A stretch of DNA of 64,000 nucleotides, taken from assembly GCA_045401155.1 (NCBI GenBank), contig CP174360.1, positions 419,079 through 483,078 of the forward strand, in the 5' to 3' direction. The notes under the pieces are model-generated. The model was not told where the DNA came from. It ran no database searches and saw nothing but the letters and a program-made list of their open reading frames with translations. Position numbers and translations under genes: made by a program. Position 1 is the first letter of the stretch. Each line of letters begins with the position of its first letter. Shown here piece by piece: positions 39,588 to 63,490 of the stretch. The DNA is from Candidatus Minusculum obligatum. Its GTDB lineage: Bacteria > Patescibacteriota > Minisyncoccia > Phycocordibacterales > Phycocordibacteraceae.

Positions 39588-41177
39588 TTGAGCTCAAAAA
39601 TGAAAATTGTATCAAAAGCGCTTGCGCTACTTACAAAGCCAGTTACTTGGTTTAAAAACTTACGAAAGCGAATGAAATTGCTTGTGCTTGCAGTGCTTGC
39701 GTTCCTTTTCATTGGAATTATTGCGAGTGTGCTTTTTGGACCAAAGACTACAGATGAAGATCTACAAGATACATCATCGGTAGTTGAACTTAAGTCTCCG
39801 CGAGAGATTGCAACAACACTAGATCCCCTACCTCTTGTAGGTAACGTACGATCTGCAACAGAGGCAACAATTTTAACTGAAGCATCAGGGCGAGTTACTC
39901 GTGTATACCGATCTCTTGGAGATTATGTAAGCGCTGGATCTGTTATCGCAGAAATCGAGAACAGCTCTGAGTATGCTGCTGTACTACAAGCAGAAGCAAA
40001 CCTTGCACGTGTTGAAGACTCTTCAGAAGATGAGCAGCTAAGTTCTGCAATAACCGGACTACAAACAGCAAAAGAGTCTTCTCTTGCGACAATCTTAAGC
40101 GCATACGCAACAGTACAAGATGCAATTCGTCAAAAAGCAGATGCAACATTTTCAAACCCAACAACCGCAAGTGCCGAGTATGAAATAAGCACAAGTGATT
40201 CTGCACTTGAAAATCAAATTGAAAGTAGGCGTGTAAGTATGCAACGCATTCTTTCTCGACAACAGGCAACCGGCGCAATTCTTACTACAGAAAGCAATCT
40301 TGATGTTGAGCTAAAGACTGCACTAGATGAATTAAAAGAGGTTCGCACATATCTAGATCTTGTTGTTGAGTCTCTAAACAAAGCTATTCCAAATAATGAT
40401 TTCTCTACAAGTGACATCTCAAGCTTTAGCACGAGTGTAAGTACTGGCCGAACCGCAGTTACTACGTCTATCTCATCTATTGCTGCAAGCATTGAAAACC
40501 TTGCTGCAAAACGTGCAGCAAAAGAGATTGCTGAAAACTCTCTTGAAAATAGCACCACAGGCGTAAAGCGACAGGATGTATTACAAGCAGAAGCATCTCT
40601 TGCTGCCGCACGTGCTGCATTTGAAAAGAAAGTTATTCGTGCACCATTCTCCGGAACGGTAAACGCTCTAAATATTGAGCTTGGACAGTTTGTGAGCGCA
40701 TTTGAACCTGCTGCAACGATTGCAAACAATGGGATTCTTGAAATTCGTGCATATATCACGGAGCGTGATAAAGAGTACGTATTCCCCGGACTTTCCGTTT
40801 CATCTCTTGATGGAATTAAAGGAACTATTACAGAGGTGGCGCCCGCACTTGATCCAATTACAAAGCGTATTGAAGTGCGCATTGCCCTAAGTGATACAGG
40901 ATCTATTACAAACGGACAGTCTATTCGACTTCTTGTGGAACGCACAAAAGAAAATGTAGAAGTAGTAACTCCTATTGTGCCCCTAACTGCAATTACCTTT
41001 AAAGGAAACGATCCTTTTGTCTTCACTGTAGATCAAGAAAATACTCTTGTTGCAGTACCCGTAACGCTTGGTGTGATCCTTGGAGATCGAATTGAGATCG
41101 AAGGAATTGATGTGGATACACAAGTGGTAGTTGATGCACGAGGATTTCTAGAAGGTGAAGTAGTAACAACCAACTAA
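39588..41177 (+). CDS. efflux RND transporter periplasmic adaptor subunit (membrane fusion protein)
   Basis: N-terminal TM anchor, biotinyl/lipoyl-like half-motifs (VRSATEATILTEASGRVTRV...SVIAEIEN), unusually long Ala/Ser-rich coiled-coil, beta-barrel C-terminus. Confidence 0.8.
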   Translation: MSSKMKIVSKALALLTKPVTWFKNLRKRMKLLVLAVLAFLFIGIIASVLFGPKTTDEDLQDTSSVVELKSPREIATTLDPLPLVGNVRSATEATILTEASGRVTRVYRSLGDYVSAGSVIAEIENSSEYAAVLQAEANLARVEDSSEDEQLSSAITGLQTAKESSLATILSAYATVQDAIRQKADATFSNPTTASAEYEISTSDSALENQIESRRVSMQRILSRQQATGAILTTESNLDVELKTALDELKEVRTYLDLVVESLNKAIPNNDFSTSDISSFSTSVSTGRTAVTTSISSIAASIENLAAKRAAKEIAENSLENSTTGVKRQDVLQAEASLAAARAAFEKKVIRAPFSGTVNALNIELGQFVSAFEPAATIANNGILEIRAYITERDKEYVFPGLSVSSLDGIKGTITEVAPALDPITKRIEVRIALSDTGSITNGQSIRLLVERTKENVEVVTPIVPLTAITFKGNDPFVFTVDQENTLVAVPVTLGVILGDRIEIEGIDVDTQVVVDARGFLEGEVVTTN

Positions 41178-41178
41178 T

Positions 41179-44100
41179 ATGTTTCATTTCTGGAATTTCT
41201 TTCTATCTAAACGACCTTTTAGCTATCTGCTAATTGGAGCGTTCATTTTCTTTGGGCTTGTTTCAATTATTGCAATTCCTAAAGAATCAGCACCCGAGGT
41301 GAAGGTGCCTATTGGTGTTGTCTCATCTGGGCTTCCAAATGCTTCAGCTGAAGATATTGAGACCCTTATCACAAATAAACTTGAGCAGGAGTTTAAATCT
41401 TCTCTTGAGGGTGTAAAAAATATCACTTCTACAACACGAGAAGGATCTGTTGGAGTGGTTGTAGAGTTTGAAGCCTCTGCTGATCTTGAGGACTCTATCC
41501 GCAAACTACGTGACGCTGCAGATAATGCACGAAGCGAACTTCCTGATGATGCATTTGATCCAGTTGTATCTGAAATCAACTTTGCAGATCAGCCAATCAT
41601 GACCATTTCTGTGCTTGGTCCAGTTGCAATTGAAGAGCTCACAAGTATCGCAAACTTTGTAGAGGAAGAGCTTGAGAAAGTTTCTGGTGTATCAAAAGTA
41701 GATACTGGAGGAGTTCGAGATAAGGAGGTGCAAGTAATTGTCTCTCAAGAGTCTCTAAAAACATATGGGATTAACTTAAGTGATGTTGTGGGAGCACTGT
41801 CTCGTACAAACGCGTCACTTCCTGCCGGAGATATCACTATTGGAAATGCAAAGTACGCGATTAAATTTGAAGGAGACATCGATACACCTGAGGAAGTTGC
41901 GGATCTTGCAATTTTAAGTGTTGGTGGCCAGCCTGTTTATGTACGAGACATTGCCGATGTACGCGTGGGACTTGAAGAGACACGAACCATCTCTCGCGTA
42001 TCACTTGAAGGAGCAAATCCACAAAACGCTATTTCATTTTCTGTATATAAGCGAAGTGGTGGAGACATTACTCGCATCGCTCGATCAGTACACGAAAAGC
42101 TTGATGAGCTACGCAGCACAGATCAACTACAAGGACTACAAACACTTGTAACGTATGACATGGGTGAAGAAGTTGAGAAAGATCTCGTAAACCTTACGCG
42201 CACAGGACTGCAGACCGTATTCCTTGTAACTATCATTCTCTTTATTGCACTTGGATGGCGCGAAGCGCTTATTGCGGGTCTTGCAATACCTCTTTCATTT
42301 ATTATTGGGTTCATTGGCCTGTATAACTCAGGCAATACCCTTAACTTCGTATCACTCTTCTCTCTTATTCTTGCGGTTGGAATTCTTGTGGACTCAGCAA
42401 TTGTGATTGTTGAAGGAATCCATACACGAATGAAAAACTGGGAGGGCAAGTTACAAAGTGCTCGAGAAGCAATTAAGGAGTACAACTACCCTATTACTGC
42501 TGGTACGTTTACTACCATTGCAGTATTTGCGCCCTTATTCCTTGTATCAGGAGTGACCGGAGAGTTTATTGCATCTATTCCATTTACGATTATCTTCGTG
42601 TTGCTTGCATCACTATTTGTGGCGCTTGGTCTTATTCCTCTTATTGCGTCTTCATTTATGAAGCGACGAAGCACTTCTAAGATGGAAGAGATTCAGGAAA
42701 AGTACACTCATAAACTACAAGACTGGTACAAAGAAAAAGTACAGATCATTCTTGGAAAGAAGCGTCGAGAAACATTCTTTATTTGGGGAATTATTGGACT
42801 ATTTATTCTTTCATTTTTCCTTCCTGCACTTGGACTTGTAAAAGTTACATTCTTTGAACAAGGAGACGTGGAAAACTTGTTTGTAGACATTGAGCTACCG
42901 CAAGGAACAACACTTGCCCGATCTAACCTAGAAGCACAAAAGATTGAAGAGATTCTTTTACAAGATAGTCGCATCGCTGACTTCACCACCACTATTGGAC
43001 AAGCAAGTCCATTTAATGGAGAAGGAACTACAGACTCTAAATTTGCAAACATGCAAATTACCCTTGTTGAGGATCGAAAGGAAACAAGTACTGAAATTCT
43101 AAAAGATCTTCGAAAGAAGGTGGCACACATCACCACATCAGATATTCGTATCGATGAGCCAAGCGATGGACCTCCTACAGGAGATGCTATTTCTGTAGAA
43201 CTTCTTGGAAATAACCAGGATGAGCTTCTAATTGCTGGAGCGCAGGTAAAAGCACTCTTTGAAGATATTGAGGGTACCGCCAATATCCAGACAAGCGCTC
43301 GGGACAATGCTGCACAGTTTGTACTTTCTATCGACCGAGCTAAGGCTGTGGAGCTTGGACTCTCTCCTCTTGATGTAGCGCAGGTACTACGTACCTCAAT
43401 CTCAGGAGTAGATGCAACTTCAATCCCTCAGTCTGATACGGACGTAGATATTGTTGTAAAAACAAATCTTGCAACTGAGTATTCTGACCCACACGAGACA
43501 AATCGAGCGACACTTGATGAAGTACGGCAGCTAACCATCAACGGGCCACAAGGACCAGTGCTGCTCGGGTCTCTTATTACAGAGAGTTACGAGGTATCAA
43601 ATGCAGTAATCCGCCACAAGGATGGGAAACGTGTACTTACTGTTTCTGGAGATAAAACACCTGAAGCAAATACCTTCGCTATTGTTGCTGAGTTTATGCA
43701 GCGACAAGGTGAGCTTGACCTCCCATCTAGTGTAACTCTAAGCATTGGCGGAGAGTCTGATGAATCAAACCAGGCATTTGCTGAGATGCTTCTCTCACTT
43801 ATTGTAGGACTTCTCGCAATGCTCGCAATTCTTGTACTGCAGTTTAACTCATTTAGATATGCAGGATACGTGCTCTCAATCGTACCGTTCTCACTTATTG
43901 GAATCTTTGCAGGACTTGCGGTCTCAGGACAGCCACTATCGTTCCCTTCTGTGATGGGATTCATCGCCCTTACAGGAATTGTGGTGAATAACTCAATTAT
44001 TCTTATTGATGTGATGAACAATATTCGTCGCGAGAATCCAGATAAGAGTATTGAAGATGTGGTGCTTGAAGGAACAACAAGCCGTCTACGGCCAATCCTC

Positions 44101-44316
44101 CTTACAACACTTACAACTGTGATTGGAGTTATGCCACTTCTATTCTCTTCAGCACTATGGGCACCACTTGCCTGGGCAATCATCTTTGGACTTACATTTT
44201 CAGTAGTCCTTACACTTATCCTCATTCCTATCATCTACCGACGATGGCCAGGAGTTCTTCCTGAAGAAAAAGAAAAGCTAAAACTACAAGCTGAAGAAGC
44301 TGTAGCAAAACAATAA
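41179..44316 (+). CDS. RND efflux transporter permease (AcrB/HAE family)
   Basis: 1045 aa with 12 TM and two large periplasmic loops; start is 2 nt after the adaptor stop. Confidence 0.95.
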   Translation: MFHFWNFFLSKRPFSYLLIGAFIFFGLVSIIAIPKESAPEVKVPIGVVSSGLPNASAEDIETLITNKLEQEFKSSLEGVKNITSTTREGSVGVVVEFEASADLEDSIRKLRDAADNARSELPDDAFDPVVSEINFADQPIMTISVLGPVAIEELTSIANFVEEELEKVSGVSKVDTGGVRDKEVQVIVSQESLKTYGINLSDVVGALSRTNASLPAGDITIGNAKYAIKFEGDIDTPEEVADLAILSVGGQPVYVRDIADVRVGLEETRTISRVSLEGANPQNAISFSVYKRSGGDITRIARSVHEKLDELRSTDQLQGLQTLVTYDMGEEVEKDLVNLTRTGLQTVFLVTIILFIALGWREALIAGLAIPLSFIIGFIGLYNSGNTLNFVSLFSLILAVGILVDSAIVIVEGIHTRMKNWEGKLQSAREAIKEYNYPITAGTFTTIAVFAPLFLVSGVTGEFIASIPFTIIFVLLASLFVALGLIPLIASSFMKRRSTSKMEEIQEKYTHKLQDWYKEKVQIILGKKRRETFFIWGIIGLFILSFFLPALGLVKVTFFEQGDVENLFVDIELPQGTTLARSNLEAQKIEEILLQDSRIADFTTTIGQASPFNGEGTTDSKFANMQITLVEDRKETSTEILKDLRKKVAHITTSDIRIDEPSDGPPTGDAISVELLGNNQDELLIAGAQVKALFEDIEGTANIQTSARDNAAQFVLSIDRAKAVELGLSPLDVAQVLRTSISGVDATSIPQSDTDVDIVVKTNLATEYSDPHETNRATLDEVRQLTINGPQGPVLLGSLITESYEVSNAVIRHKDGKRVLTVSGDKTPEANTFAIVAEFMQRQGELDLPSSVTLSIGGESDESNQAFAEMLLSLIVGLLAMLAILVLQFNSFRYAGYVLSIVPFSLIGIFAGLAVSGQPLSFPSVMGFIALTGIVVNNSIILIDVMNNIRRENPDKSIEDVVLEGTTSRLRPILLTTLTTVIGVMPLLFSSALWAPLAWAIIFGLTFSVVLTLILIPIIYRRWPGVLPEEKEKLKLQAEEAVAKQ

Positions 44317-52660: not shown

Positions 52661-53602
52661 TTAGAGAGTCATGAAAAGAGCACCTTTGCTTCCATCTAAA
52701 TTAATTTCATAAATATTAAATTGTTCTTTTGCTCCAGGCATGCCTGGAGAACCGCTTGGCATACCTGCCATGCCAATACCTTTTATAGGCGGCCTTTCCG
52801 CAAGAAGCTTTTGTACAGCCTCTTCAGGAACATGTCCTTCAACCACGTACCCTCCAATCGTCATAGTATGACAGCTTCCAAGTTCACTTGGAACACCAAA
52901 CTGCTCTTTTATAGCAATGAGCTCATCTGTATTTTCTGCAACCACATCGTATCCCTTACCTTGAAGGTGTGCGACATATCCTGAACAACATCCACATGTA
53001 GGTGACTTATATACGGTTGCGATAATATCTTTTGCTTCAATCATTGCGACTTCGCTAGAACTGATCTCTCGATAAATATCACGCATGAGATTTATTTCTT
53101 CTGACTGATTTACAATGATTGCATTAGCAAGAGCTGTTATTTCTTCATGCTCTGCAATTGGAAGCACTGTTTGAGCCATCATGATTGCACCCATGTGATG
53201 CATAGTCATATCATGAAGGAATACTCGATCAAGATTTTCTCCTGAAAGAGATTCGAGCTCCCTCATCATGGGCACGTACACGCCCTGATCTATGTACTCT
53301 TCTTCATACCACTTCTTATAATTTTCCTTCATTTGAGCGACTTCTTTTGTCTGTGTTGAGATAATGTTTTCTGAGAGAGAAACCATACGCTCTACTGTTC
53401 CGCCACGCCCAAGAACTTCTTGTGCTGTAGAAATAGCCTCTTCGTGGTGTGGAATCATGTGCTCTAAAAATTCACGCTCATTAGAGAAGTTTGGAACCAT
53501 CGCATGTTGTACCGGTTGCTTTTCCATAAATGAATTGTTTAAAAACAAAACTGCCACAGCAACCACAACCCCTCCCAAAAGAATTAATCCTGCATTTTTC
53601 AT
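52661..53602 (-). CDS. DUF305 (ferritin-like, HH-motif) fused to CopG/DUF411-like CxCC metal-binding domain; putative periplasmic copper-homeostasis protein
   Basis: Signal/TM N-terminus; twin HH motifs (MIPHHEEAI, MTMHHMGAIMMAQ); C-terminal TCGCCSG...SCHTM, a CopG-type CxCC motif. Confidence 0.65.
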   Translation of the reverse strand: MKNAGLILLGGVVVAVAVLFLNNSFMEKQPVQHAMVPNFSNEREFLEHMIPHHEEAISTAQEVLGRGGTVERMVSLSENIISTQTKEVAQMKENYKKWYEEEYIDQGVYVPMMRELESLSGENLDRVFLHDMTMHHMGAIMMAQTVLPIAEHEEITALANAIIVNQSEEINLMRDIYREISSSEVAMIEAKDIIATVYKSPTCGCCSGYVAHLQGKGYDVVAENTDELIAIKEQFGVPSELGSCHTMTIGGYVVEGHVPEEAVQKLLAERPPIKGIGMAGMPSGSPGMPGAKEQFNIYEINLDGSKGALFMTL

Positions 53603-53662
53603 AGTTTTCCAATTCTACACTAGTAAACAAAAGACGTTAAATTCATTTGCTACACTGTATGC

Positions 53663-54115
53663 ATGAACCACTATAAAAATCTTTTTCTTTCAATTGCAAC
53701 AAGCTTTTTAGTAATGTACGCGCTTACGTATATTGCTGTATACGCATGGGGTGACATCTATTTATTTAGCACCCGAAGTTTATACATGGCTATGATCATG
53801 ATTGCGCCAATGATCTTGATTATGCTCATTTTTATGGGAAACATGTATAAAAACAAAAAACTAAATACTGCATTGTACGTATTTAGTATTGGCTTATTTT
53901 TTCTCTCTTTCCTCTTTATACGAAAGCAAGTGTTTGTAGACGATACACAATTTTTACGCTCTATGATTCCCCACCACTCAAGCGCAATTACCATGTGTAA
54001 AGAAAGTTCCCTATCTGACTCAGAAGTTATTGAGCTTTGCGAGAACATCATTACTGCTCAACAAAAAGAAATAGACCAGATGAACTCTATTTTAGAACGA
54101 CTAAAAAATAACTAG
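53663..54115 (+). CDS. membrane-anchored DUF305-like protein (single HH repeat)
   Basis: Three TM helices, then MIPHHSSAITM...CENIITAQQKEIDQM. Paralogous to the N-terminal half of the divergent 52661..53602 product. Confidence 0.5.
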   Translation: MNHYKNLFLSIATSFLVMYALTYIAVYAWGDIYLFSTRSLYMAMIMIAPMILIMLIFMGNMYKNKKLNTALYVFSIGLFFLSFLFIRKQVFVDDTQFLRSMIPHHSSAITMCKESSLSDSEVIELCENIITAQQKEIDQMNSILERLKNN

Positions 54116-54219: not shown

Positions 54220-54819
54220 TTAACTAAGACTCTTAAGATCTTCAATAATCTCTGAAAACTCATTCTCATTGAAGTGTCCTCTGTCTTTAAATGCTCGTAT
54301 ACGAGCATTTGGTAACAACTCTTGATATCTTGATAAGTGAGAGAACGGAACAACCTGATCATCCTCGCTATGATACAGATAAATATCTGACACCTGTTCA
54401 CGAAGCAATGAAAGGTCATTCTCAATATTAAAGTCCACATATGGATCTTTTTCTATTGAATTAAATGGTGCAGCAACTAAAAACAGTGCTTTAATTTCTT
54501 TTTGATATTTTTCTTCAGAAAGATACTTTGCAAGAAATATTGCACCTAGAGAATGCCCAATACACACCACCTTCTCATCAAGAAGTGGAACTATCTTTTC
54601 AAACATTATCTTCCACTCAGAATATTTTGCATTATCTCTGCAAGGCATTGATGGCATGAGAATATCGTAACCATCTCCTAAAACAGATTGCAGATGCATC
54701 TTCCAACCACCGGGCCGTAATCTAGTCAGTGTTATTTCTTTCTCTTTGAGTGCTTGGAGGTATCCATCATGAGTTTCGTATGCACTTCCTCCACTAATAA
54801 CAACAATTTGTTTTTTCAT
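54220..54819 (-). CDS. alpha/beta hydrolase, YdeN/RBBP9-like serine hydrolase
   Basis: Nucleophile elbow GHSLGA with downstream Asp/His. The start is placed at MKKQIVVISGG, because the longer track ORF (to 54885) would read through a GC-rich terminator hairpin. Confidence 0.7.
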   Translation of the reverse strand: MKKQIVVISGGSAYETHDGYLQALKEKEITLTRLRPGGWKMHLQSVLGDGYDILMPSMPCRDNAKYSEWKIMFEKIVPLLDEKVVCIGHSLGAIFLAKYLSEEKYQKEIKALFLVAAPFNSIEKDPYVDFNIENDLSLLREQVSDIYLYHSEDDQVVPFSHLSRYQELLPNARIRAFKDRGHFNENEFSEIIEDLKSLS

Positions 54820-54832
54820 ATTAAAAGTATAA

Positions 54833-55005
54833 CAAAAAAGGAAAAGCCCCTCCTGAGCACCATGAAGGCGGGAGGGGCTGACCATAGCCAGACATTGTCT
54901 GACCGTATTTGCCCCTGGGTCTCTAGAGCTCTTGCTCTTTGTAGGCGTGCACTTACGCCTCGTTGTTCGGTCGAAGACCTACTCCCAGGGAAGAAAACTG
55001 ATCCA
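54833..55005 (-). ncRNA. candidate structured 5' leader (riboswitch/attenuator) or small RNA ending in an intrinsic terminator
   Basis: A roughly 170-nt GC-rich island in an AT-rich intergenic region. Predicted hairpins: GGUC-UUCG-GACC, GGCGU-AAGUGC-ACGCC, CAGAC-AAU-GUCUG, a CCCUGGG...CCCAGGG closing helix, then GCCCCUCC-N15-GGAGGGGC plus UUUUCCUUUUUU 13 nt before the hydrolase ATG. A perfect TATAAT lies just upstream at 55012..55017. Confidence 0.35.
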
Positions 55006-55031: not shown

Positions 55032-55089
55032 TTTGTCAAAAAGAAAAACCAGCAGTCGCTGGAATTTCTTTTTTTGGATAAATCCAAAA
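55032..55089. repeat. 58-bp direct repeat copy 2 (terminator for tRNA-Ala)
   Basis: Same sequence as 54132..54189 with tt to aa in the palindrome loop and t to c at the 5' edge. Immediately 3' of tRNA-Ala. Confidence 0.85.
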
Positions 55090-55092
55090 TTG

Positions 55093-55166
55093 TGGACTCG
55101 AGAGGAATCGAACCCCCGACCTCCTCAGTGCAAATGAGGCGCTCTAGCCAACTGAGCTACGAGCCC
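55093..55166 (-). tRNA. tRNA-Ala (anticodon UGC)
   Basis: Manual fold: acceptor GGGCUCG/CGAGUCC with the G3:U70 Ala identity pair, D-arm GCUC-AGUUGGCUA-GAGC, anticodon stem CCUCA/UGAGG with loop UUUGCAC, T-loop GGUUCGAUUCC, discriminator A. CCA is not encoded. Confidence 0.9.
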
Positions 55167-55336: not shown

Positions 55337-56260
55337 TTATCGCTTTAGCGCAAGGTCTTTTACATGTGCAATAAACTCTTCTGTATTTGAGCCAACTGCA
55401 GAAAGCGCCTTAGAAAATAGTGATCCCTCATGGAATTTTGGAAGTGCGTTTGCCTCAAGGAAGTACACCTTTCGTGGAGTCACCAAGAAATCCACCTTTG
55501 CATAATGCCGAAGATCAAGGGCTTTAAACACTTCCTTCGTAGACGCTTCAATAATCTCTTTTTGTTCTCTACTAAAACTTCCTGGGCACCGGTCTCTCCA
55601 CTCTCCATTTATCTTCTCAATCTCAACAGGAGGAATAAGATACAAGGGTGTATCTCTATACCCTTCAATAATGTAGACGCTTGCCTCCTTTCCTCGAATA
55701 AACTCCTCAAACACAATTGGACCGTGCTCAATTAGCTCATGAGATGCGTCATAGAGCTCCTCTGGTGTCGTTGCAATACGTACCCAATGACTTCCCTCGC
55801 CAAACACTGACTTAACTACAATCGGAAGACCTAAGTTACGAACTGCAAGCGCACCCCTTGCCTCTATATCTTCTGTCTTCTCACATAAAACATACCGTGG
55901 AATATCAATGCCTCGTTCTTTCACGGTCTCCTTTGAAAGCACTTTGTGTGAACAAATAAATGATGGGAGCGCTGTAGATCCTGTAAATGGAACCTTGTGT
56001 TGATTTAGAATCTTCTGCACTTTCCCGTCCTCTCCATATGGCCCATGTAGTGCATTAAACACAAGATCAACCATCGTCAAAACCTTGTGAGGATCCACTG
56101 GACGCCCTCTGTCATGCCATACGCCATCTTTATCTATAAAGACATCTCTATGCGTCCCCGGAGACGAATAGAGATGATCTAATACGAGCTGACCACTTTT
56201 AAGAGAAGCTTTGTGATCTAGAGAGGGCCCACCACGAAGTACAGCTACAACATTACTCAT
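55337..56260 (-). CDS. ddl: D-alanine--D-alanine ligase
   Basis: ATP-grasp fold; N-terminal VAVLRGGPSLDH and FNALHGPYGEDGKVQ, C-terminal LEANALP. Confidence 0.9.
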   Translation of the reverse strand: MSNVVAVLRGGPSLDHKASLKSGQLVLDHLYSSPGTHRDVFIDKDGVWHDRGRPVDPHKVLTMVDLVFNALHGPYGEDGKVQKILNQHKVPFTGSTALPSFICSHKVLSKETVKERGIDIPRYVLCEKTEDIEARGALAVRNLGLPIVVKSVFGEGSHWVRIATTPEELYDASHELIEHGPIVFEEFIRGKEASVYIIEGYRDTPLYLIPPVEIEKINGEWRDRCPGSFSREQKEIIEASTKEVFKALDLRHYAKVDFLVTPRKVYFLEANALPKFHEGSLFSKALSAVGSNTEEFIAHVKDLALKR

Positions 56261-56299: not shown

Positions 56300-57001
56300 T
56301 TAGTTTGGTTGCCCTCCATCCTCTGAGTTATCTTGCGCATTATCACAGTTGAAGTCCTGCAAATCAATTAGTCCGTCTCCATCATTATCGATTCCATCAC
56401 TACATTGCGGAGCAGCTGGACCTGCGTATAGTCCCGCAGACTGTGCTTGAGAGATTGTGTATGTTGCATTTGTACTTGGGATAAAGTTTCCGTCACATAC
56501 AAAGCGCCCTAGATAACACGCGGTTCCGTCAGTTGTACAATCATTTCTGTCTTCTGAACAAGAATCAGAACCTAACACAACCCACCCTTGTGCCTTTGCA
56601 CTTGCTGAGAGCCTGGTAGTGCAATAATCTTGATACCCTTCTTTGTTTGGACCATCTGTTGTTGCAGCAGGAAATACTCCTACACGCTCAAACGTACACA
56701 CTTCATTAAATCCTGGAACACTTACTGCAGGCCAGTCTGTAATGCAGTTGTTTGAACCCCCAAGACAAAAAGAATTTGAGGCAAGCACATTTACTCCCGC
56801 AAGTGCTCCTGCAACAAGGTCACCAGACTTTGATTGAGCGGAACTCCCAACATTTATTGGAGCTTCCACGTTTCCATTTGGAAAACTTTCACTTGGTTGC
56901 GTAAAATTAGCAGCATATACGATACCTCCCGCAAGCAAGAATACAAAAAGTGCTCCTGGAATTGCATGTACTATTTTTTTTGTCATAATCTCTTTTTTCA
57001 T
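56300..57001 (-). CDS. secreted cysteine-rich hypothetical protein (paralog A)
   Basis: Signal peptide (...GGIVYA/ANF), 12 Cys, C-terminal D/G/N-rich tail. Collinear homology with the 57017..57628 product. Confidence 0.5.
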   Translation of the reverse strand: MKKEIMTKKIVHAIPGALFVFLLAGGIVYAANFTQPSESFPNGNVEAPINVGSSAQSKSGDLVAGALAGVNVLASNSFCLGGSNNCITDWPAVSVPGFNEVCTFERVGVFPAATTDGPNKEGYQDYCTTRLSASAKAQGWVVLGSDSCSEDRNDCTTDGTACYLGRFVCDGNFIPSTNATYTISQAQSAGLYAGPAAPQCSDGIDNDGDGLIDLQDFNCDNAQDNSEDGGQPN

Positions 57002-57016
57002 AAAACGAATAATATC

Positions 57017-57628
57017 TTATCTTTCTTCTGAATTATTATCTCCGCCCCCACTTCCACCTCCATACAACGCCTCAAACACAGCTTGACCTTGGTCAATTTT
57101 TCTAATACTTGTTGCTGCCGTCTGATCATCACATGAAAGACGAATGAACATACACGCGACACCATCTGTCGTACAGTTGCCACGATCTTCTGAACAAGCA
57201 TCTGAACTTACAGGTACCCAGCCATCTGCACGAGCAGCACTTGTAAGCTGCCCATTACAGTAATCTTGATACCCTTCCATGTTTGGACTATTTGTATTTG
57301 CTGGAGGGAACACACCAACACGTTCAAGCAAACAAACTTGTGCGTAATCAAGTGTACCGGACTCCCACCAATCACTAATACAGTTGTCAGCTCCTAGACA
57401 AAAAAGATTTGATGCGCTAACCGTTCCTGCACCAAGAGATGCCGCTGCAAGATTTCCTGATTTTTCCTGAGAAAAACTACTCTTATTTACTGGTGCAGCA
57501 ATATTCCCTCCTGTAGGATCTGTCGTTGGGTTTGTAAAAGATGCAACAGAAACAGCACCGATAAGAAGAACTCCCAAAAGCGCTCCTGCCCGCAGATACT
57601 TAGACCAATACTGTAGTGTGTTTTTCAT
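57017..57628 (-). CDS. secreted cysteine-rich hypothetical protein (paralog B)
   Basis: Signal peptide; shares FT(N/Q)P..P.GN(I/V)(E/A)AP(I/V)N..S..Q.KSG(D/N)L.A..LGAG.V.ASN.FCLG..NCI(S/T)DW and later ERVGVFP..T..PN.EGYQDYC with paralog A. Confidence 0.5.
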   Translation of the reverse strand: MKNTLQYWSKYLRAGALLGVLLIGAVSVASFTNPTTDPTGGNIAAPVNKSSFSQEKSGNLAAASLGAGTVSASNLFCLGADNCISDWWESGTLDYAQVCLLERVGVFPPANTNSPNMEGYQDYCNGQLTSAARADGWVPVSSDACSEDRGNCTTDGVACMFIRLSCDDQTAATSIRKIDQGQAVFEALYGGGSGGGDNNSEER

Positions 57629-57629
57629 A

Positions 57630-57926
57630 TTAATTACTCTCTATATTACCACCAGGAATCTGGTCTAGCATGTTAATAAGATCCTCTCCTGAGACTCTCT
57701 TTTCTTCTGGAGTATCAATCTTTTCCAATTCAGAAAAGATGCGTTCTTCCTGTGTTGGAAATAGATTCATAAACGCATTTCGTAGTGCCGGTACAAAATA
57801 TGCCGATACCCCAAGTAGAATTATGAATAATACTACTCCAATTAACATTGCTTTTTTATTATCTCCTCCATTATTTTGAGAAGACATTTGTGACTGCATT
57901 TCAGGCTGTGTGTTTTGTGTTTCCAT
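57630..57926 (-). CDS. small single-TM protein, hypothetical
   Basis: 98 aa; central TM AMLIGVVLFIILLGVSAYFV. Confidence 0.4.
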   Translation of the reverse strand: METQNTQPEMQSQMSSQNNGGDNKKAMLIGVVLFIILLGVSAYFVPALRNAFMNLFPTQEERIFSELEKIDTPEEKRVSGEDLINMLDQIPGGNIESN

Positions 57927-57934
57927 ATGCTTTT

Positions 57935-59638
57935 TTAGAACTCCTCAAAGTCCGGAGGAATATTAACGGTTACTGATTCTGTGAATGTCTCAGATGAAGC
58001 ATCACATGTGATGGTGTACACGCTTCTGCTTGTAATAGTCACGTCTGCATCTCCATTAAGCGGATCATCTGTTGCATTATTTACAAGAATTCCTGGGCCA
58101 ACCACATCACAACTTGTAATGTCTTCAGCAGACCACTCAATGGTTACAACCTCTTGATTAGGCACACGTACAGAACCGCTCTCTCCATCTGCAGTAATGC
58201 TTATGTTTGGAAGCAGCACTTCTACACTCGCATTGTCACTTGCAGATCCACACTGTACCTGGTAGATGGCATCACTTGTTGGTGTAACAACAGCAGTTCC
58301 GCTTGTTGCGTTGCCGGTATTAAATCCAACACCAGTACATGAGCTTGCATTTGTTGAAGACCATGTAAGCGTAGCGCTTTCTCCAAGAAGAATTTCATTT
58401 GGTGATGCTGAAAGCGCTGCAGTTGCAGGGTCTCCACCTCCACCTCCTTGGGTAATACTTACTGTACATGTATCGCTAACCGTTCCATTTTCTGCTTCTA
58501 CAGTAATGGTTGCACTCTTTGTACCTTGAGAGTTGTATCGTTTAGAAACACTTGTTCCTGAACCTGAAAGACCTTGATCGCCACTCCAGGTATATGTAAC
58601 TTGACCAAAGGTATTATCTACATCAGCAGTCCAGTTAATAAGTGCTCCTGTACCGGCTGAGGTTGGGTCTGCTGAACAGGAAACAGCAAGCCCTAGGCGA
58701 TCTACCTGAATGGTACTTCGTGGACCACAGTTATTGTCCTCATTACTTTCTGCAATTTCGTTATTCTGATCAACACAGACACGCACATCGTGTGTTCCGC
58801 TTGGTGGGTTATTCCAAACGTATGATGCGGTCTTGAAGTTGCCTGCTGTTAGGTTAGTAATAGCATCATTTTCATCAAGATTTAGGTCAAACTCCTGGCT
58901 ATATGTTGAGTTGATAGCGATCTGCACCCTAATATCAATTCCTCCGGTAACATCATCGCCCCCATTGTTTGTAATTGGAACCTCAATAAGCATCTCGCTT
59001 CCATTATTTTGCGGAGTTGCAACAACGCTACCAGCAGTAAGATCAACACCATCGTTACCCGCACACGCTGCACCACTTCCTGTCACAGAATACCCAGGAC
59101 CTCCAAATGAAAGCCACCCAATTACTCCACTATTTGAATCTGCTCCACCACCCCATGCCTTTCCACTCCAAGTACAACCTGACACATTAACTCCAACACG
59201 AGGAGTTTGTCCTAAATAAATCCACCCGTCCCATCCTCCAGACTGTGCAGAACCTCCTGCGAGCGCCTTTGCCCAACCACTTACTTGGCCTGTAGCGTCA
59301 TTTAGTGTCGCCTGACATGAACCAAACGGACATCCGTTTGTATCTGAACCATTAAAACTAATCCATCCTATATTTGAAGACCATGCGTACCCTTCAATAT
59401 TTCCATTATTTTTTACACCAACCCAATAGTCAGAAGTAGCACATGTTCCTGTATTTTCACATGTAAGACTTACCCACCCGATAGTTGAAGACCATGCGTA
59501 ACCAGTTAGATTCTTAGGCACCGAAGAAGATGTTTGTGCGTGCGCAAACATCGGAAGCGCAAAGACAATGATGACTCCCGCAAGTAGTACATTTGTAAAA
59601 ATATTTTTCATAATAGGTATAGCTATACAAGCACGCAT
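57935..59638 (-). CDS. secreted cell-surface protein with N-terminal Trp-rich repeats, CARDB-like domain and Ig/PKD-like beta domains
   Basis: Signal peptide; repeated GYAWSS(T/N)IGW(V/I)S(L/F) motif (at least 2 clear and 2 degenerate copies); CARDB-like segment ending ...VDQNNEIAESNEDNNCG; Ser/Thr/Gly-rich beta repeats. Confidence 0.55.
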   Translation of the reverse strand: MRACIAIPIMKNIFTNVLLAGVIIVFALPMFAHAQTSSSVPKNLTGYAWSSTIGWVSLTCENTGTCATSDYWVGVKNNGNIEGYAWSSNIGWISFNGSDTNGCPFGSCQATLNDATGQVSGWAKALAGGSAQSGGWDGWIYLGQTPRVGVNVSGCTWSGKAWGGGADSNSGVIGWLSFGGPGYSVTGSGAACAGNDGVDLTAGSVVATPQNNGSEMLIEVPITNNGGDDVTGGIDIRVQIAINSTYSQEFDLNLDENDAITNLTAGNFKTASYVWNNPPSGTHDVRVCVDQNNEIAESNEDNNCGPRSTIQVDRLGLAVSCSADPTSAGTGALINWTADVDNTFGQVTYTWSGDQGLSGSGTSVSKRYNSQGTKSATITVEAENGTVSDTCTVSITQGGGGGDPATAALSASPNEILLGESATLTWSSTNASSCTGVGFNTGNATSGTAVVTPTSDAIYQVQCGSASDNASVEVLLPNISITADGESGSVRVPNQEVVTIEWSAEDITSCDVVGPGILVNNATDDPLNGDADVTITSRSVYTITCDASSETFTESVTVNIPPDFEEF

Positions 59639-59676: not shown

Positions 59677-60888
59677 CTACCTTCTTAGGTTATCTCTTCG
59701 TGATCTGTGGAAAGATAGTGCGTACCTATGCGCTTCTGCATTTACTAAAATAATATCTGTCTCTGGAATAGAAATTTGTGGCATGGGAGATATTTTTTTA
59801 GGTCGATGATACTCATCTTTGGTAACCGCAACCACAGGAATTTGAAGTCCCATCATATCAAGAGTCTTGAGCGCTACATTTTTCTGTGCAATACCACCAT
59901 CTACCACAATCACCTTTGGGTACTCCCATTCAGAGTGTGAGAATCTTCGCTCAAGCAACTCCTTAAGTCCTGCAACATCATTATTCTCCTGACTCTTTAA
60001 AATAAATTTGCGGTACTCTTTTTTCTCAAGCTCACCATCTACCACCACTGTCATCACGCCCACAACCTCCCTCCCGCTTGTGTGCGCCACGTCATACCCC
60101 TCAATGCGCACTCCGTGCGTTCTACGCAAATCATCTTTAATAAGTGCCACATCTTGAATATGTGTAAGAGAAAATAACTGCCGTTTAATAGTCTCTGCAT
60201 CCTCAAACCGCTCCTCCTTTGCAGCGATTTTCATCTCCTTCTCAAGCTCTTTTAAAATCTGCTTTTTCTTACCAGAAAGAAAAAGTTGGATATGACGAAT
60301 ATTACGCAGATATTCATCATGCGAGATACCACGTGGATACCTTCCAATCTGACGATTAAACTCAAGGTTTGCTTTTAGATGTTTACTATCTTCAGTAACT
60401 TTTGCTTTCGTATCATAAAATGGAAAAATCTTTCGAATAATCTCAAGTGCTTTACGAAGTGAAGGACCGCTTGTAAACGGACCAAACTTATACTTAATTA
60501 AATCTGTATCAAAACTAACTCCCAAATCCTTCCCGCGCACAAAAAGCACTCGAGGCCACTCTTCATTTGTAATAACAGCATACAAATAACTCTTATCGTC
60601 TTTTTCTTTTACGTTATAAAGCGGTTGATGCTTTTTAATCTCGAGCGACTCAAGAATAAGTGCTTCAAGTACTGAGTCTGTTTCCTCAAAAGAAACGCTA
60701 TCTGATTTTGTGACCATATCTACAATACGCGGCCCACGAGAAGCAATAACATCATCATTAAAATAACTTCGTACACGATCACGAAGTGATGTTGCCTTCC
60801 CTATGTACAAGATGTTCTCCCCCTCTAAAAAACGATAGACACCTGGTGCATCAGGCAGCTTAAATTTATGTAGATCCTTTTTTTGCAT
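59677..60888 (-). CDS. uvrC: excinuclease ABC subunit C, short form (GIY-YIG + UVR + RNase H-like endonuclease; no C-terminal HhH)
   Basis: GIY-YIG (GVYRF...ILYIGKA), UVR motif (FEDAETIKRQL); 403 aa versus about 600 canonical. Overlaps uvrA by 23 nt. Confidence 0.88.
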   Translation of the reverse strand: MQKKDLHKFKLPDAPGVYRFLEGENILYIGKATSLRDRVRSYFNDDVIASRGPRIVDMVTKSDSVSFEETDSVLEALILESLEIKKHQPLYNVKEKDDKSYLYAVITNEEWPRVLFVRGKDLGVSFDTDLIKYKFGPFTSGPSLRKALEIIRKIFPFYDTKAKVTEDSKHLKANLEFNRQIGRYPRGISHDEYLRNIRHIQLFLSGKKKQILKELEKEMKIAAKEERFEDAETIKRQLFSLTHIQDVALIKDDLRRTHGVRIEGYDVAHTSGREVVGVMTVVVDGELEKKEYRKFILKSQENNDVAGLKELLERRFSHSEWEYPKVIVVDGGIAQKNVALKTLDMMGLQIPVVAVTKDEYHRPKKISPMPQISIPETDIILVNAEAHRYALSFHRSRRDNLRR

Positions 60889-63490
60889 GCTTTTTTAGCA
60901 TCTTAGCAAGATATGTGCCGGTATGTGACGCCTTTACCTTTGCAACTTCTTCTGGAGTTCCTTTAGCAACTACAGTTCCACCACCTTCTCCTCCCTCGGG
61001 TCCAAAATCAATCAAATAATCTGCTGACTTAACCACATCAAGATTGTGTTCAATAACAATCACTGAGTTACCACGATTTACAAGCTCCTGAAGAATCGTA
61101 ATAAGCTTTGCCACATCATCGTAGTGAAGCCCTACCGTTGGCTCATCTAGAAGGTATACCGTTTTTGTCTGAAGAGGCCGGAAGAGCTCTGAAGCAATCT
61201 TCACACGCTGTGCTTCTCCTCCTGAGAGTGTTGTTGCAGATTGTCCAAGCTCAAGGTACCCAAGGCCCACATCCATAAGTGCCTTAAGACGATCATAAAT
61301 TGCAGGGATATCCTTATAAAATTCAAACGCCTCTTCAACAGTCATGTGAAGTACCTCGTGAATATTCTTTCCACGGTACGTCACATCAAGTGTTTCCTTC
61401 ATAAACCGTGTCCCGTCACATACATCACACTTCACATATACTGTCGGCAAAAAGTGCATCTCAACGGCCACAACTCCATTTCCTTGGCACGCCTCACACC
61501 GTCCACCCTTTACGTTGAAAGAAAATCGTCCGGGCTTCCATCCGCGAGCACGCGCCTCACTTGTTGCAGCAAAAAGATCACGAATATGTGTGAACGCTCC
61601 TGTATATGTCGCCGGATTAGAGCGGGGCGTTCGCCCAATTGGAGACTGATCAATAAGCACGGCACGATTTACATACTCGCTTCCTAAGAATTTAGAACAG
61701 TTGTGACTTGCGGGCTGTTTTGTTTTTCGATCAAATCGAGATACAAGATTTCTGTGAACCACGTCATATAGGAAGGTGGACTTTCCAGATCCAGAAACAC
61801 CCGTAATACACACAAGACGACCAAGAGGGATATCTACATTCTGATTATCAATATTATGCTTCTTAGCACCAATTACCTGAAGCTTCCCCTTCTCACTTGT
61901 GCGACGATTCTCTGGTACAGAAATTTCTTCCTCCTCCCGAAGGTATGCGAGCGTACGAGACTTACTTGGATTTGTTTTTGCGGTCAAAAGATCGTCTAAA
62001 TATCCTGAAACTACGATCTCTCCACCGTGCACTCCTGCTCCTGGCCCCACATCAATCAAATAATCTGCAGCATAGATAGTGTCTTCATCATGCTCCACTA
62101 CAATAATAGTGTTCCCAAGATCACGAAGCTGCGTTAGCGTCTGAATCAAACGATCGTTATCTCGCTGATGCAGTCCAATGGTTGGCTCATCAAGCACATA
62201 AAGTGCCCCCACAAGACCTGATCCAAGCTGCGATGCCAGGCGGATGCGCTGTGCCTCTCCTCCTGAGAGTGTATTTGCCTTTCGATCAAGTGTTAGGTAC
62301 TCAAGACCAACATCAAGCAAGAACTGAAGTCGACTTCGAACCTCTCGCAAAATAGGGGCCGCAATCTCCTCTTGCTGCTTTGTAAGATTCAAATCATTAA
62401 AAAATGCTACCGCATCTGCAATAGACATATTTGCAGCCTCTACAATATTCTTTCCAAGATCTTTTCCCTTACCTCCTAGATATACGCGGAGCGCTTCGGG
62501 CCGAAGTCGCTTCCCTTCACATGTAGGACAAACATCATCTGCAAAGAATCCGATAGTTCCAAGACCATTACACTCAGGACACGCTCCATATGGAGAGTTA
62601 AATGAGAAAAGGCGAGGTTCAACCTCAGGAAATGATGCTCCATCTACAGGACAAATAAACTTAGCTGACAGTGTCTCAAAACTCTCATCTGCATGGCCAA
62701 TCTTTACAAGACCCTCTGCCTCTTTAAGTGCAATCTCAAGCGCTTCAGAAAGTCGCTCTTTAGCACCACTTGGATCTTTTTGAAACTCTGTTACAAAAAT
62801 TTCATCAACAAGTGCGTCAATATCGTGTCGTTTTGTTTTCGTAAGCGTAATTTTTTCTCGAAGAGACTGGATCTTTCCATCTACCATCACGCGCTCAAAT
62901 CCTTTTCCAAGAAGATCATACAGAAGCTGATAGTACTCGCCCTTTCTTCCAACCACCACAGGAGCAAAGATCTGAATCTTCTGCTTATTTAGTGCAACTC
63001 CCATTACCTCTTCTGCCTTTTCTGGATCTGGAACGATCTTCTTTGTAACCAAAGAAATCATTTCATCTTTTGAAAGTTTCTCGATCTTTACGTCATCATC
63101 AAGACAGTATGGCTGGCCCACGCGGGCATACAGTACTCGAAGATAGTCATAAATCTCTGTAATAGTTGCAACAGTAGAGCGTGGATTATTTGAACGACTC
63201 TTTTGATCAATTGAAATAGCAGGAGAAAGTCCTGTAATCTCATCGACCTCTGGCTTTTGCATCTGATGCAGAAACTGCCGCGCATATGCTGAGAGAGACT
63301 CAACATATCGTCTTTGCCCTTCTGCGAAGATCGTATCAAAGGCAAGCGAAGACTTCCCAGAACCAGAGAGTCCTGAGATCACGACCATTTTTCCTCGAGG
63401 CATTGAAACTGTTACGTTCTTAAGGTTGTGCGTTTTTGCGCCCTTAACAACAATCTCATCGCTCATTTCATGTTTTTTATGATTTGCCAT
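60866..63490 (-). CDS. uvrA: excinuclease ABC subunit A
   Basis: Two ABC ATPase modules ([18 protein letters not shown]), zinc-finger CxxC pairs, two LSGGE signatures. Confidence 0.97.

Follow-up and report, generated by a model that had tools for sequence, protein, structure and literature searches.

The Patescibacteria (Candidate Phyla Radiation) account for a large share of bacterial diversity, and most of them are thought to live attached to other cells. Type IV pili have already been implicated in host attachment in this group, and to our knowledge almost nothing is known about attachment molecules beyond these pili, especially in the uncultivated Paceibacteria. Here we describe a locus in a 64,000-nucleotide stretch of the genome of Candidatus Minusculum obligatum (contig CP174360.1, positions 419,079 to 483,078 of the forward strand; hereafter the window, to which all coordinates refer), where four adjacent minus-strand genes, A to D, encode a multidomain protein with an N-terminal domain of tryptophan (Trp) repeats (A), a small protein with a single transmembrane (TM) segment (B) and two cysteine (Cys)-rich paralogs that share an N-terminal module, the N-module (C and D). 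By sequence comparison, these genes represent the local form of a module with three parts, which hundreds of Patescibacteria genomes contain. Surface fibre and adhesin systems as such are already known, whereas the building blocks of this one are undescribed, namely two uncatalogued domain families (the Trp-repeat domain and the N-module), which are tied here, along with a small repeat-bearing membrane protein, into one linked module. No description of this triad or of its motifs was found in the searchable literature.

Described Systems and Their Relation to the Locus

Phage fibres are attached through their N-terminus and bind the receptor with their C-terminus. The longer relatives of C and D resemble phage tail fibres and tailspikes, as they carry the intramolecular chaperone Peptidase_S74 (S74), Gp34_trimer, gp36 and collar domains and combine a conserved N-terminal end with a variable distal end; C and D differ in having neither shaft nor S74 domain, and the N-module is absent from PHROGs and from the viral contigs searched. 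Since the proteins carry predicted Sec signal peptides and the genes have chromosomal housekeeping neighbors, any fibre would be cell-attached rather than virion-borne. In the Bacillus exosporium nap, the trimeric collagen-like protein BclA bears a variable globular head and docks with its processed N-terminus on BxpB/ExsFA. By analogy, the N-module might dock on A and B, and 4 of 55 N-module neighbors of the Trp domain are collagen-like; however, there is no sequence relationship to the nap proteins, envelope and organism differ, and docking in the cassette is hypothetical.

Protein A can be compared with the surface proteins rich in CARDB and PKD domains (PF07705; PDB 3idu, 2l0d), as it has a bona fide CARDB domain together with PKD-like and immunoglobulin (Ig) domains. 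Such domains are generic spacers, though, and the elements that define A, its Trp-repeat N-domain and its PxFxEF tail, lie outside this family. Short tandem repeats rich in glycine, Trp and other aromatic residues, predicted to form beta-hairpins, also recall the aromatic wall-binding repeats (CW_binding_1, clostridial CROPs and GW modules), but A has only four of them, in a compact Cys-bonded domain, and no profile of these families matches at E<=1. Finally, Patescibacteria are reported to have arrays of small signal-peptide genes, with a proposed function in parasitism (McLean et al., 2020; Kuroda et al., 2022; both as presented in PMC9763046). The locus resembles them in that small exported proteins are encoded in clusters, in the reduced genomes of episymbionts, but as far as that source presents them, the reports cover pilin-type signals, type IV pilus clusters or Saccharibacteria arrays.

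Conservation and Linkage of the Cassette

The four minus-strand open reading frames (ORFs) listed in a preliminary description of this DNA are all present, namely those of the putatively exported multidomain protein A (57935..59638, 567 amino acids (aa) from the first ATG), the bitopic membrane protein B (57630..57926, 98 aa) and the putatively exported paralogs C (57017..57628, 203 aa) and D (56300..57001, 233 aa); the spacing of 2-16 nucleotides (nt) given there has to be corrected to 8, 1 and 15 nt for A/B, B/C and C/D. Together with uvrA (63490..60866) at the upstream end, a uvrC-like gene (60888..59677) between uvrA and A, and the D-Ala-D-Ala-ligase gene ddl (56260..55337) as the next gene downstream of D, all on the minus strand, they form a single co-directional string, uvrA-uvrC-A-B-C-D-ddl, with gaps of 38-39 nt at both cassette edges. 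No promoter- or terminator-like site was found at either edge; the term cassette is justified, and the extent of an operon is undelimited. Of the four-gene operon proposed earlier, the belonging together of the genes is therefore upheld by the conserved cassette, but the boundaries of the unit are not.

For comparison, loci in related genomes (L001-L091), related proteins (P-numbers) and family alignments with their profiles (A1, A2 and A5) were compiled. The slot between uvrC and ddl holds the cassette in seven related genomes; the complete arrangement of uvrA, uvrC, cassette and ddl is kept in L001/L002, L003, L004, L005, L006 and the GTDB representative L010, and is partly visible in L090 and L091. 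Close relatives of the UBA2103-type locus derive from marine metagenomes. The cassettes of the relatives generally start with a small TM protein of 82-112 aa, continue with one to three C/D-type paralogs of 183-239 aa and end with the big protein (562-938 aa). The window instead has the big protein first, followed by the TM protein and two paralogs, as does its closest relative L090 (ddl 98% identical), whereas L091 retains the other order. Comparison of the uvrC-ddl slots thus indicates that the members of the cassette stay the same within a clade in which their copy number and order differ. In the distant Paceibacteria L007 and L009, the neighborhood is a different one (from a lytic transglycosylase to L31 and RF1), but the same triad is kept, as a small TM protein, an N-module protein of ~200 aa and then a Trp-domain protein, and the triad is also present in L012, L015 and L078.

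In a pattern scan with one genome per species, at least 558 species had a Trp domain, nearly all of them under the labels Patescibacteria, Parcubacteria or Paceibacteria; of 112 homologs, 101 have the domain at the N-terminus. Two short contigs with other labels, L036 (6.7 kilobases (kb), labelled Pirellulales) and L063 (3.5 kb, labelled Hyphomicrobium), carry typical pairs of Trp-domain and N-module genes and are probably mis-binned Patescibacteria.

Linkage between the families was quantified in 12-kb slices of species-level loci. An N-module gene lies on the same strand within 400 nt of the Trp-domain gene in 43 of 78 loci (28 of the 47 with complete flanks), and conversely, 46 of the 70 N-module genes found in Trp-domain loci are no more than 400 nt away from the Trp-domain gene. 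When 874 ORFs from these slices were clustered all against all, the N-module family was represented in 47 loci and the next commonest family in 9. The two families are immediately adjacent in 29 of 75 loci against 11.3 expected, a value that none of 5,000 permutations reached. Within the 64-kb window, the three profiles match in the cassette only. Homologs dispersed individually over unrelated contexts, which would have spoken against a dedicated system, are hence not what is seen, as both the cassette and the phylum-wide neighborhood are kept.

The pair is co-directional with type IV pilus or DsbA-type genes in ~20 of 80 loci. A PilB ATPase gene adjoins it in eight of them (L016, L052, L062, L064, L074, L080, L082 and L087) and a type IV pilin trio in six (L014, L032, L036, L050, L075 and L085), while genes for DsbA and a pyridine-nucleotide disulfide oxidoreductase adjoin it in L024, L025, L027, L028, L039 and L079; the DsbA neighborhood fits disulfide-rich exported proteins.

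Protein A and the Trp-Repeat Domain

The 558-aa "CARDB domain-containing protein" annotated by NCBI in Patescibacteria group bacterium UBA2103 is identical to A. Since both this annotation and the orthologs begin at the second ATG, M10 (nt 59611), this is most likely the true start, and the length of the protein is probably 558 rather than the 567 aa given earlier. The first ATG adds nine residues, MRACIAIPI (59611-59638), which are missing from the NCBI annotation and the orthologs. The signal peptides of A, C and D were judged by hand from a positively charged n-region, a hydrophobic core (KD19 of 2.0-2.4) and an AxA-type site. In A, hydropathy and the -3/-1 rule place a predicted Sec signal peptide at residues 10-34 (59537..59611, minus strand), MKNIFTNVLLAGVIIVFALPMFAHA followed by QTSS, with predicted cleavage in the context FALPMFAHA/QTSS, at AHA/Q.

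The N-terminal domain of the mature protein (residues 40-195, 59054..59521, minus strand) comprises four repeats and three Cys pairs in 156 residues. The GYAWSS-type motif noticed earlier is real: four copies of G(Y/K/W)AW...GW(V/I/L)S(L/F) are located at residues 46-58, 83-95, 121-142 and 159-178, and repeats 1 and 2 still share 76% DNA identity over 54 nt. The family was defined by four G-x-A-W...G-W-x-S-F repeats and conserved Cys pairs in an N-terminal position after a signal peptide; its alignment A5 has 40 invariant columns, and A belongs to it with E 4e-75 against the A5 profile. What had been described as a Trp repeat is accordingly an N-terminal domain in its own right, which is missing from the domain catalogues searched and common across Patescibacteria. 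The domain has no Pfam or NCBIfam match in A, while in 89 homologs Pfam recognized Ig-type domains only, and the A5 profile retrieved nothing related from the PDB at E<=10. PDB searches with A5 and A2 gave no significant match; a weak one to botrocetin and those to PsaL (E 0.16-2) were discarded as chance.

The Trp-repeat domain is followed on the minus strand by a CARDB domain (residues 199-304, 58727..59044, ending in NEIAESNEDNNCG), for which the earlier assignment is confirmed by a formal match to PF07705 (E 9.8e-12, 45.4 bits against a cutoff of 22.7), by a PKD-like Ig domain (residues 318-396, 58451..58687), which scores just below the Pfam cutoffs of PF18911/PF00801, and by two further Ig-like beta-sandwich domains with one Cys pair each (residues 406-475 and 478-560, 57959..58423). 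The mature protein has 14 Cys, paired within each sub-domain. An AlphaFold2 model built from 120 homologs is all-beta, with a mean predicted local distance difference test (pLDDT) score of 89.3, ~90 for the Trp-repeat domain and 94-98 for the last two Ig-like domains. The last Ig domain is ~68-80% identical in close relatives and 45% in L005, and also occurs in CARDB proteins without a Trp domain (L007 and L009).

The protein ends in IPPDFEEF-COOH (57938..57961, minus strand), an instance of P-x-[FWY]-x-E-[FILV]. E566 is conserved in at least 90% of the 120 homologs, 58 of which finish in P.[FWVYIL].[ED][FY], and throughout the phylum Trp-domain proteins bear the motif at their C-terminus or close to it (PDFEEF, PEFKEI, PAWREI, PKWREVAPF), as do other CARDB proteins from these loci in which the Trp domain is missing. 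From this pattern of conservation, the tail seems to be another conserved element that serves interaction or sorting. Extra large CARDB proteins without the Trp domain and with the tail VNV(I/V)PxFxEF were observed in L007 (1491-4918), L009 (3488-4990) and in the upstream genes of L012 and L078; those in L007 and L009 adjoin an SLT_2 lytic transglycosylase. Regular expressions found neither LPx[TSA]G nor a lipobox in A-D, and the IPPDFEEF end of A has no TM segment, so that a sortase substrate or lipoprotein is not indicated.

Proteins C and D and the N-Module Family

C and D are tandem paralogs with 47% identity over 179 aa (E 1e-52); instead of the two collinear blocks reported for them earlier, the alignment is one such block, and a DNA stretch of 82 nt is still 78% identical. 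C consists of a signal peptide (residues 1-29), the N-module (30-100, nt 57329-57541) and a Cys-rich head (101-170, nt 57119-57328), and D of a signal peptide (1-30), the N-module (31-103, nt 56693-56911) and the head (104-175, nt 56477-56692), all on the minus strand. The hand-judged cleavage sites are of the AxA type (SVA/S in C and VYA/A in D), and both mature proteins have an even number of Cys, eight in C and ten in D. With a signal peptide or TM helix predicted for each product, even Cys counts, Ig-type domains and no domain of a cytoplasmic type, the products look exported, as the preliminary description assumed. The N-module reads FTxPxxxxxxGNxxAPxNxxxxxQxKSGxL and then CLGxxxNCIxDW, after which a head of ~70 residues contains further conserved Cys. 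Alignment A1 of the C/D family has invariant P, Q, K, W and D and six invariant Cys, and C and D belong to the N-module family as defined here, with E 6e-66 and 6e-75 against the A1 profile. The two are therefore small Cys-rich proteins, as had been noted, but not orphans, being short members of a very large family. The NCBI entry identical to D is the hypothetical protein ACJKSS_02765. The Cys-rich head resembles C-type lectins in motifs alone; none of the tests spoke for a lectin-like reading, which is not claimed.

In addition, D carries a single acidic double-disulfide repeat at residues 199-227 (56321..56407, minus strand), QCSDGIDNDGDGLIDLQDFNCDNAQDNSE, which corresponds to NCBIfam NF033662. 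Residues 199-221 match this model with 25.4 bits, below the whole-protein cutoff of 41, and D is thus not a member of the multi-repeat family, but its single repeat is clearly homologous to the repeats of P0003-P0009. L001, L003 and L006 have the acidic repeat too, in their orthologous middle paralog, and all partial database matches to D fall in it. A word-indexed search with D alone returned D itself, one relative with 82% identity and otherwise acidic-repeat matches only, and the same kind of search with a 16-sequence paralog alignment yielded just 11 proteins, because words from the acidic repeat swamped the candidates, so that an exhaustive HMMER search with the repeat-free alignment A2 was needed.

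This search returned 3,492 representative clusters, 221 of them at E<=1e-10 and 15 at E<=1e-30. The family was delimited by a signal peptide, (W/F)TxPxxxPPxGNVxAPINxxxxxQxKxGxL and CxGxxCxxxW(P). Full-length matches that include the head are limited to some 45 clusters; in all others, with proteins of 100-3,500 aa, the match is confined to the ~90 N-terminal positions. The N-module is at the N-terminus in 151 of 158 proteins. Among 119 representatives, Pfam finds Peptidase_S74 in 13, along with Gp34_trimer, T4 gp36, Gp53-like_C, Collar and Gp10_C in others and Shufflon_N in five; in the three Shufflon_N matches that were inspected, profile positions 223-290 only are covered, a fibre-like stretch and not the pilin end. 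Among the 55 N-module genes located in Trp-domain loci, seven encode S74, four a collagen triple helix, three a glycine-rich domain and one fibrinogen_C, and PT-HINT or Hint domains occur in 3 of the 119 and 1 of the 55 proteins. The longer relatives also carry VGIGTxxP-type repeats.

PHROGs has no match for A-D or for proteins consisting of the N-module only, and no relatives of the Trp domain or the N-module were found on IMG/VR viral contigs with the short exact patterns used, which is weak evidence; the N-module hence appears to be cellular rather than viral. By analogy with phage fibres, it may be the cell-proximal end of surface fibres that are presumably trimeric, of which C and D are the minimal family members, with the N-module bearing a Cys-rich knob directly. 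The Cys-rich head is also found in other combinations: it is fused to a Hint/intein-like domain in P0152 (325 aa), is followed by a long C-terminal extension in P0158 (629 aa) and forms the C-terminus behind unrelated N-terminal regions in P0176, P0200 and P0260, and can be regarded as a mobile module in its own right.

Protein B and the Small Membrane Partners

As described earlier, B has one hydrophobic segment. According to its hydropathy profile, a polar N-terminus and a KK pair are followed by a helix at residues ~27-45 (nt 57792-57848) and an acidic tail of 50 residues, which contains the motifs FSELEKIDTP and LINMLDQIPG. Orthologs of 82-112 aa are present in every related cassette, and recognizable orthologs are confined to the sub-clade with full-length C/D heads. 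An ORF of 78-128 aa with one TM segment stands beside the pair of Trp-domain and N-module genes in 31 of 78 loci. The tails of these small TM proteins bear tandem short motifs such as ILESLTAP, LKKLTP and KLRILNSL, and LxxL[STDEN][ASP] occurs 40 times in them against 11.9 +/- 3.3 in shuffled sequences (maximum 21 in 500 shuffles). Tandem short motifs on a membrane tether suggest a docking scaffold.

Evolutionary Rates

Identities between the window proteins and those of L001 and L003-L006 decrease from uvrA (~90%) over uvrC and ddl (76-81%) to the A orthologs in the same slot (45-64% overall and 63-77% in the N-domain) and to C and D (~30%), and B is undetectable by tblastn in these loci. Relative to L090, the ratio of nonsynonymous to synonymous substitution rates (dN/dS) is 0.018 for ddl, 0.11 for the C-terminal part of A, 0.17 for D, 0.22 for B and 0.34 for C, so that A-D evolve 6-19 times more freely than ddl, the sole comparable flanking gene. 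These ratios indicate that all of A-D are genuine genes on which purifying selection acts. Change is fastest in the heads and B and slowest in the docking-type modules, a pattern expected of exposed proteins whose base is conserved and whose binding end varies.

Proposed Assembly and Alternative Explanations

We propose that the cassette encodes a Sec-exported, disulfide-stabilized surface module of three components, whose conserved elements hold the assembly at the envelope and whose variable heads bind a ligand or host, an explanation to which we would give an even chance. A, C and D would be exported by Sec, cut by signal peptidase I and oxidatively folded, and the exported parts would assemble at the cell surface. 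In this assembly, A would be a stalk with a Trp-rich N-domain, four disulfide-bearing Ig-type domains and the PxFxEF tail, and B a membrane protein in N-in/C-out orientation exposing an acidic tail with short LxxL..P motifs. C and D would lack a shaft, their N-module directly bearing a compact and fast-evolving Cys-rich head, to which D would add an acidic disulfide repeat of the Ca-binding type. The Trp domain and tail of A, the repeats of B and the N-module of C and D would hold the parts together and to the envelope, while the variable heads would be exposed outward and bind their ligand, located on a host cell or a substrate. Export and cleavage, contacts between the parts, trimerization, outward orientation and an adhesive role are what we infer for A-D; the analysis itself shows their gene structure, domain content and family membership, along with co-conservation, adjacency statistics and evolutionary rates. 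A head-to-tail polymer of A, in which the C-terminal tail would enter the N-domain of the next subunit, was also considered. A more far-reaching version, in which the Trp domain would be a universal Patescibacteria docking socket for the processed N-termini of interchangeable tail-fibre-, collagen- and knob-like proteins, possibly working together with the LxxL-repeat membrane protein, seems doubtful, if conceivable.

Several results weigh against the three-component surface module. About 40% of the Trp-domain loci have no adjacent N-module gene, which makes the link between the two families frequent but not obligatory, and no fusion of the two was found among 285 proteins. C and D contain neither a shaft nor an S74 or collagen segment, so that their nature as trimeric fibres is extrapolated from relatives, and the structure model of D, from an alignment of nine sequences, is poor (pLDDT 45). 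Three fold searches with the model of A retrieved only generic Ig, CARDB or PKD chains, and since they were dominated by the Ig domains, no fold class could be extracted for the Trp domain. Pairwise dN/dS relative to L090 is below 1 for all genes and sub-regions; positive or diversifying selection is accordingly not claimed, only relaxed or fast evolution.

The missing neighbors and missing fusions would suit a set of independent wall-associated exoproteins, in which A is S-layer-like and binds peptidoglycan or a secondary wall polymer through its Trp repeats, and C and D act separately and are neighbors merely by co-regulation. Wall-anchored surface-layer proteins classically combine a conserved N-terminal repeat domain with variable Ig domains, a layout that A matches, and the repeats of A are rich in Trp, Tyr and Gly like those of carbohydrate and choline binders. 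However, Pfam gives no match to Choline_bind, SLH, LysM or SH3b at E<=1, and the profiles of choline- or cell-wall-binding repeats (PF01473, PF19127) matched neither A (E<=1) nor any of 89 homologs (E<=1e-3). Moreover, adjacency to the C/D family is far above that to any other family, the pairing outlasts both relocation to other neighborhoods and changes of gene order, and a third partner, the small TM protein, travels along, which together make independence unlikely. A role of the Trp-domain and N-module proteins as non-pilin adhesins or tip factors of type IV pili is less likely again: it would account for the ~14 of 80 loci that are co-directional with a PilB-type ATPase (8) or an N_methyl pilin trio (6) and for the family members that match Shufflon_N (PilV), and arrays of pilin and signal-peptide genes have been linked to parasitism in Paceibacteria (PMC9763046). 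Against it, Pfam detects no N_methyl domain in A-D, and none of them has a class III (prepilin) signal with a short charged leader, G|F/M-T-L-x-E and a hydrophobic helix, so that they are not type IV pilins; in the C/D family the conserved (W/F)TxP motif comes after the hydrophobic segment and not before it, the AxA site lying between the two. The Shufflon_N matches stay clear of the pilin N-terminus, no pil gene was found among the large ORFs of the window, and most loci have no pil neighbor.

Small size, richness in Cys, fast evolution and variable copy number would also be compatible with C and D being secreted effectors or toxins that act on host cells in a lytic or inhibitory manner, with the N-module as a trafficking domain and A and B as helpers of export or delivery, and the few PT-HINT and Hint domains in the family point in the same direction. 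Yet Pfam, NCBIfam and PHROGs contain no toxin or enzymatic domain matching C or D, a pretoxin domain is likewise absent from the Pfam results, the gene downstream is ddl and not of an immunity type, and structural fibre domains are the dominant C-terminal partners of the N-module; C and D are hence no recognizable polymorphic toxins, and we regard an effector function as improbable. That the cassette is the remnant of a prophage or tailocin tail-fibre cassette is suggested by the S74, gp34, gp36 and collar domains that longer relatives have in common with phage tail fibres, but profiles of the PHROGs tail category and of S74, gp34, gp36 and collar domains match none of A-D (Pfam, PHROGs). With the proteins carrying predicted Sec signal peptides, no other phage genes nearby and the cassette stable between housekeeping genes whose products are 76-90% identical, this origin is extremely improbable.

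Other Features of the Window

On the strand opposite to almost everything else, positions 39588-44316 (plus strand) encode a membrane-fusion protein of the HlyD type (529 aa) together with an AcrB/RND transporter of full length (1045 aa, ACR_tran E 2e-180), a pair of the tripartite-pump type in an organism expected to have no outer membrane. Downstream of ddl, a tRNA-Ala(TGC) gene (55092-55166, minus strand) is followed by a bidirectional hairpin terminator (55049-55062) and a perfect sigma-70 consensus promoter (TTGACA-16 nt-TATAAT, 55039-55012, minus strand), which faces a serine-hydrolase gene (54885..54220). The segment between ddl and the TspO/ATP-synthase block (52661-54115) differs among the syntenic loci L001 and L003-L006: DUF305 and DUF305+DUF411 proteins are encoded in the window and L001, with MsrB in addition in the window, and a serine recombinase and an AAA protein in L006. 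This segment looks like an insertion hot spot.

Implications for Patescibacteria

If the Trp domain were indeed a universal docking socket, the module would be a cell-borne counterpart of the phage baseplate-and-fibre system, in which the fast-evolving heads of C and D set the host range, and the swapping or duplication of head genes, which are present in one to three copies and two orders within one clade, would retarget the episymbiont. The profiles A1, A2 and A5 would annotate thousands of "hypothetical proteins." The module is a concrete candidate for the attachment apparatus of Patescibacteria and for the determinants of their host specificity.

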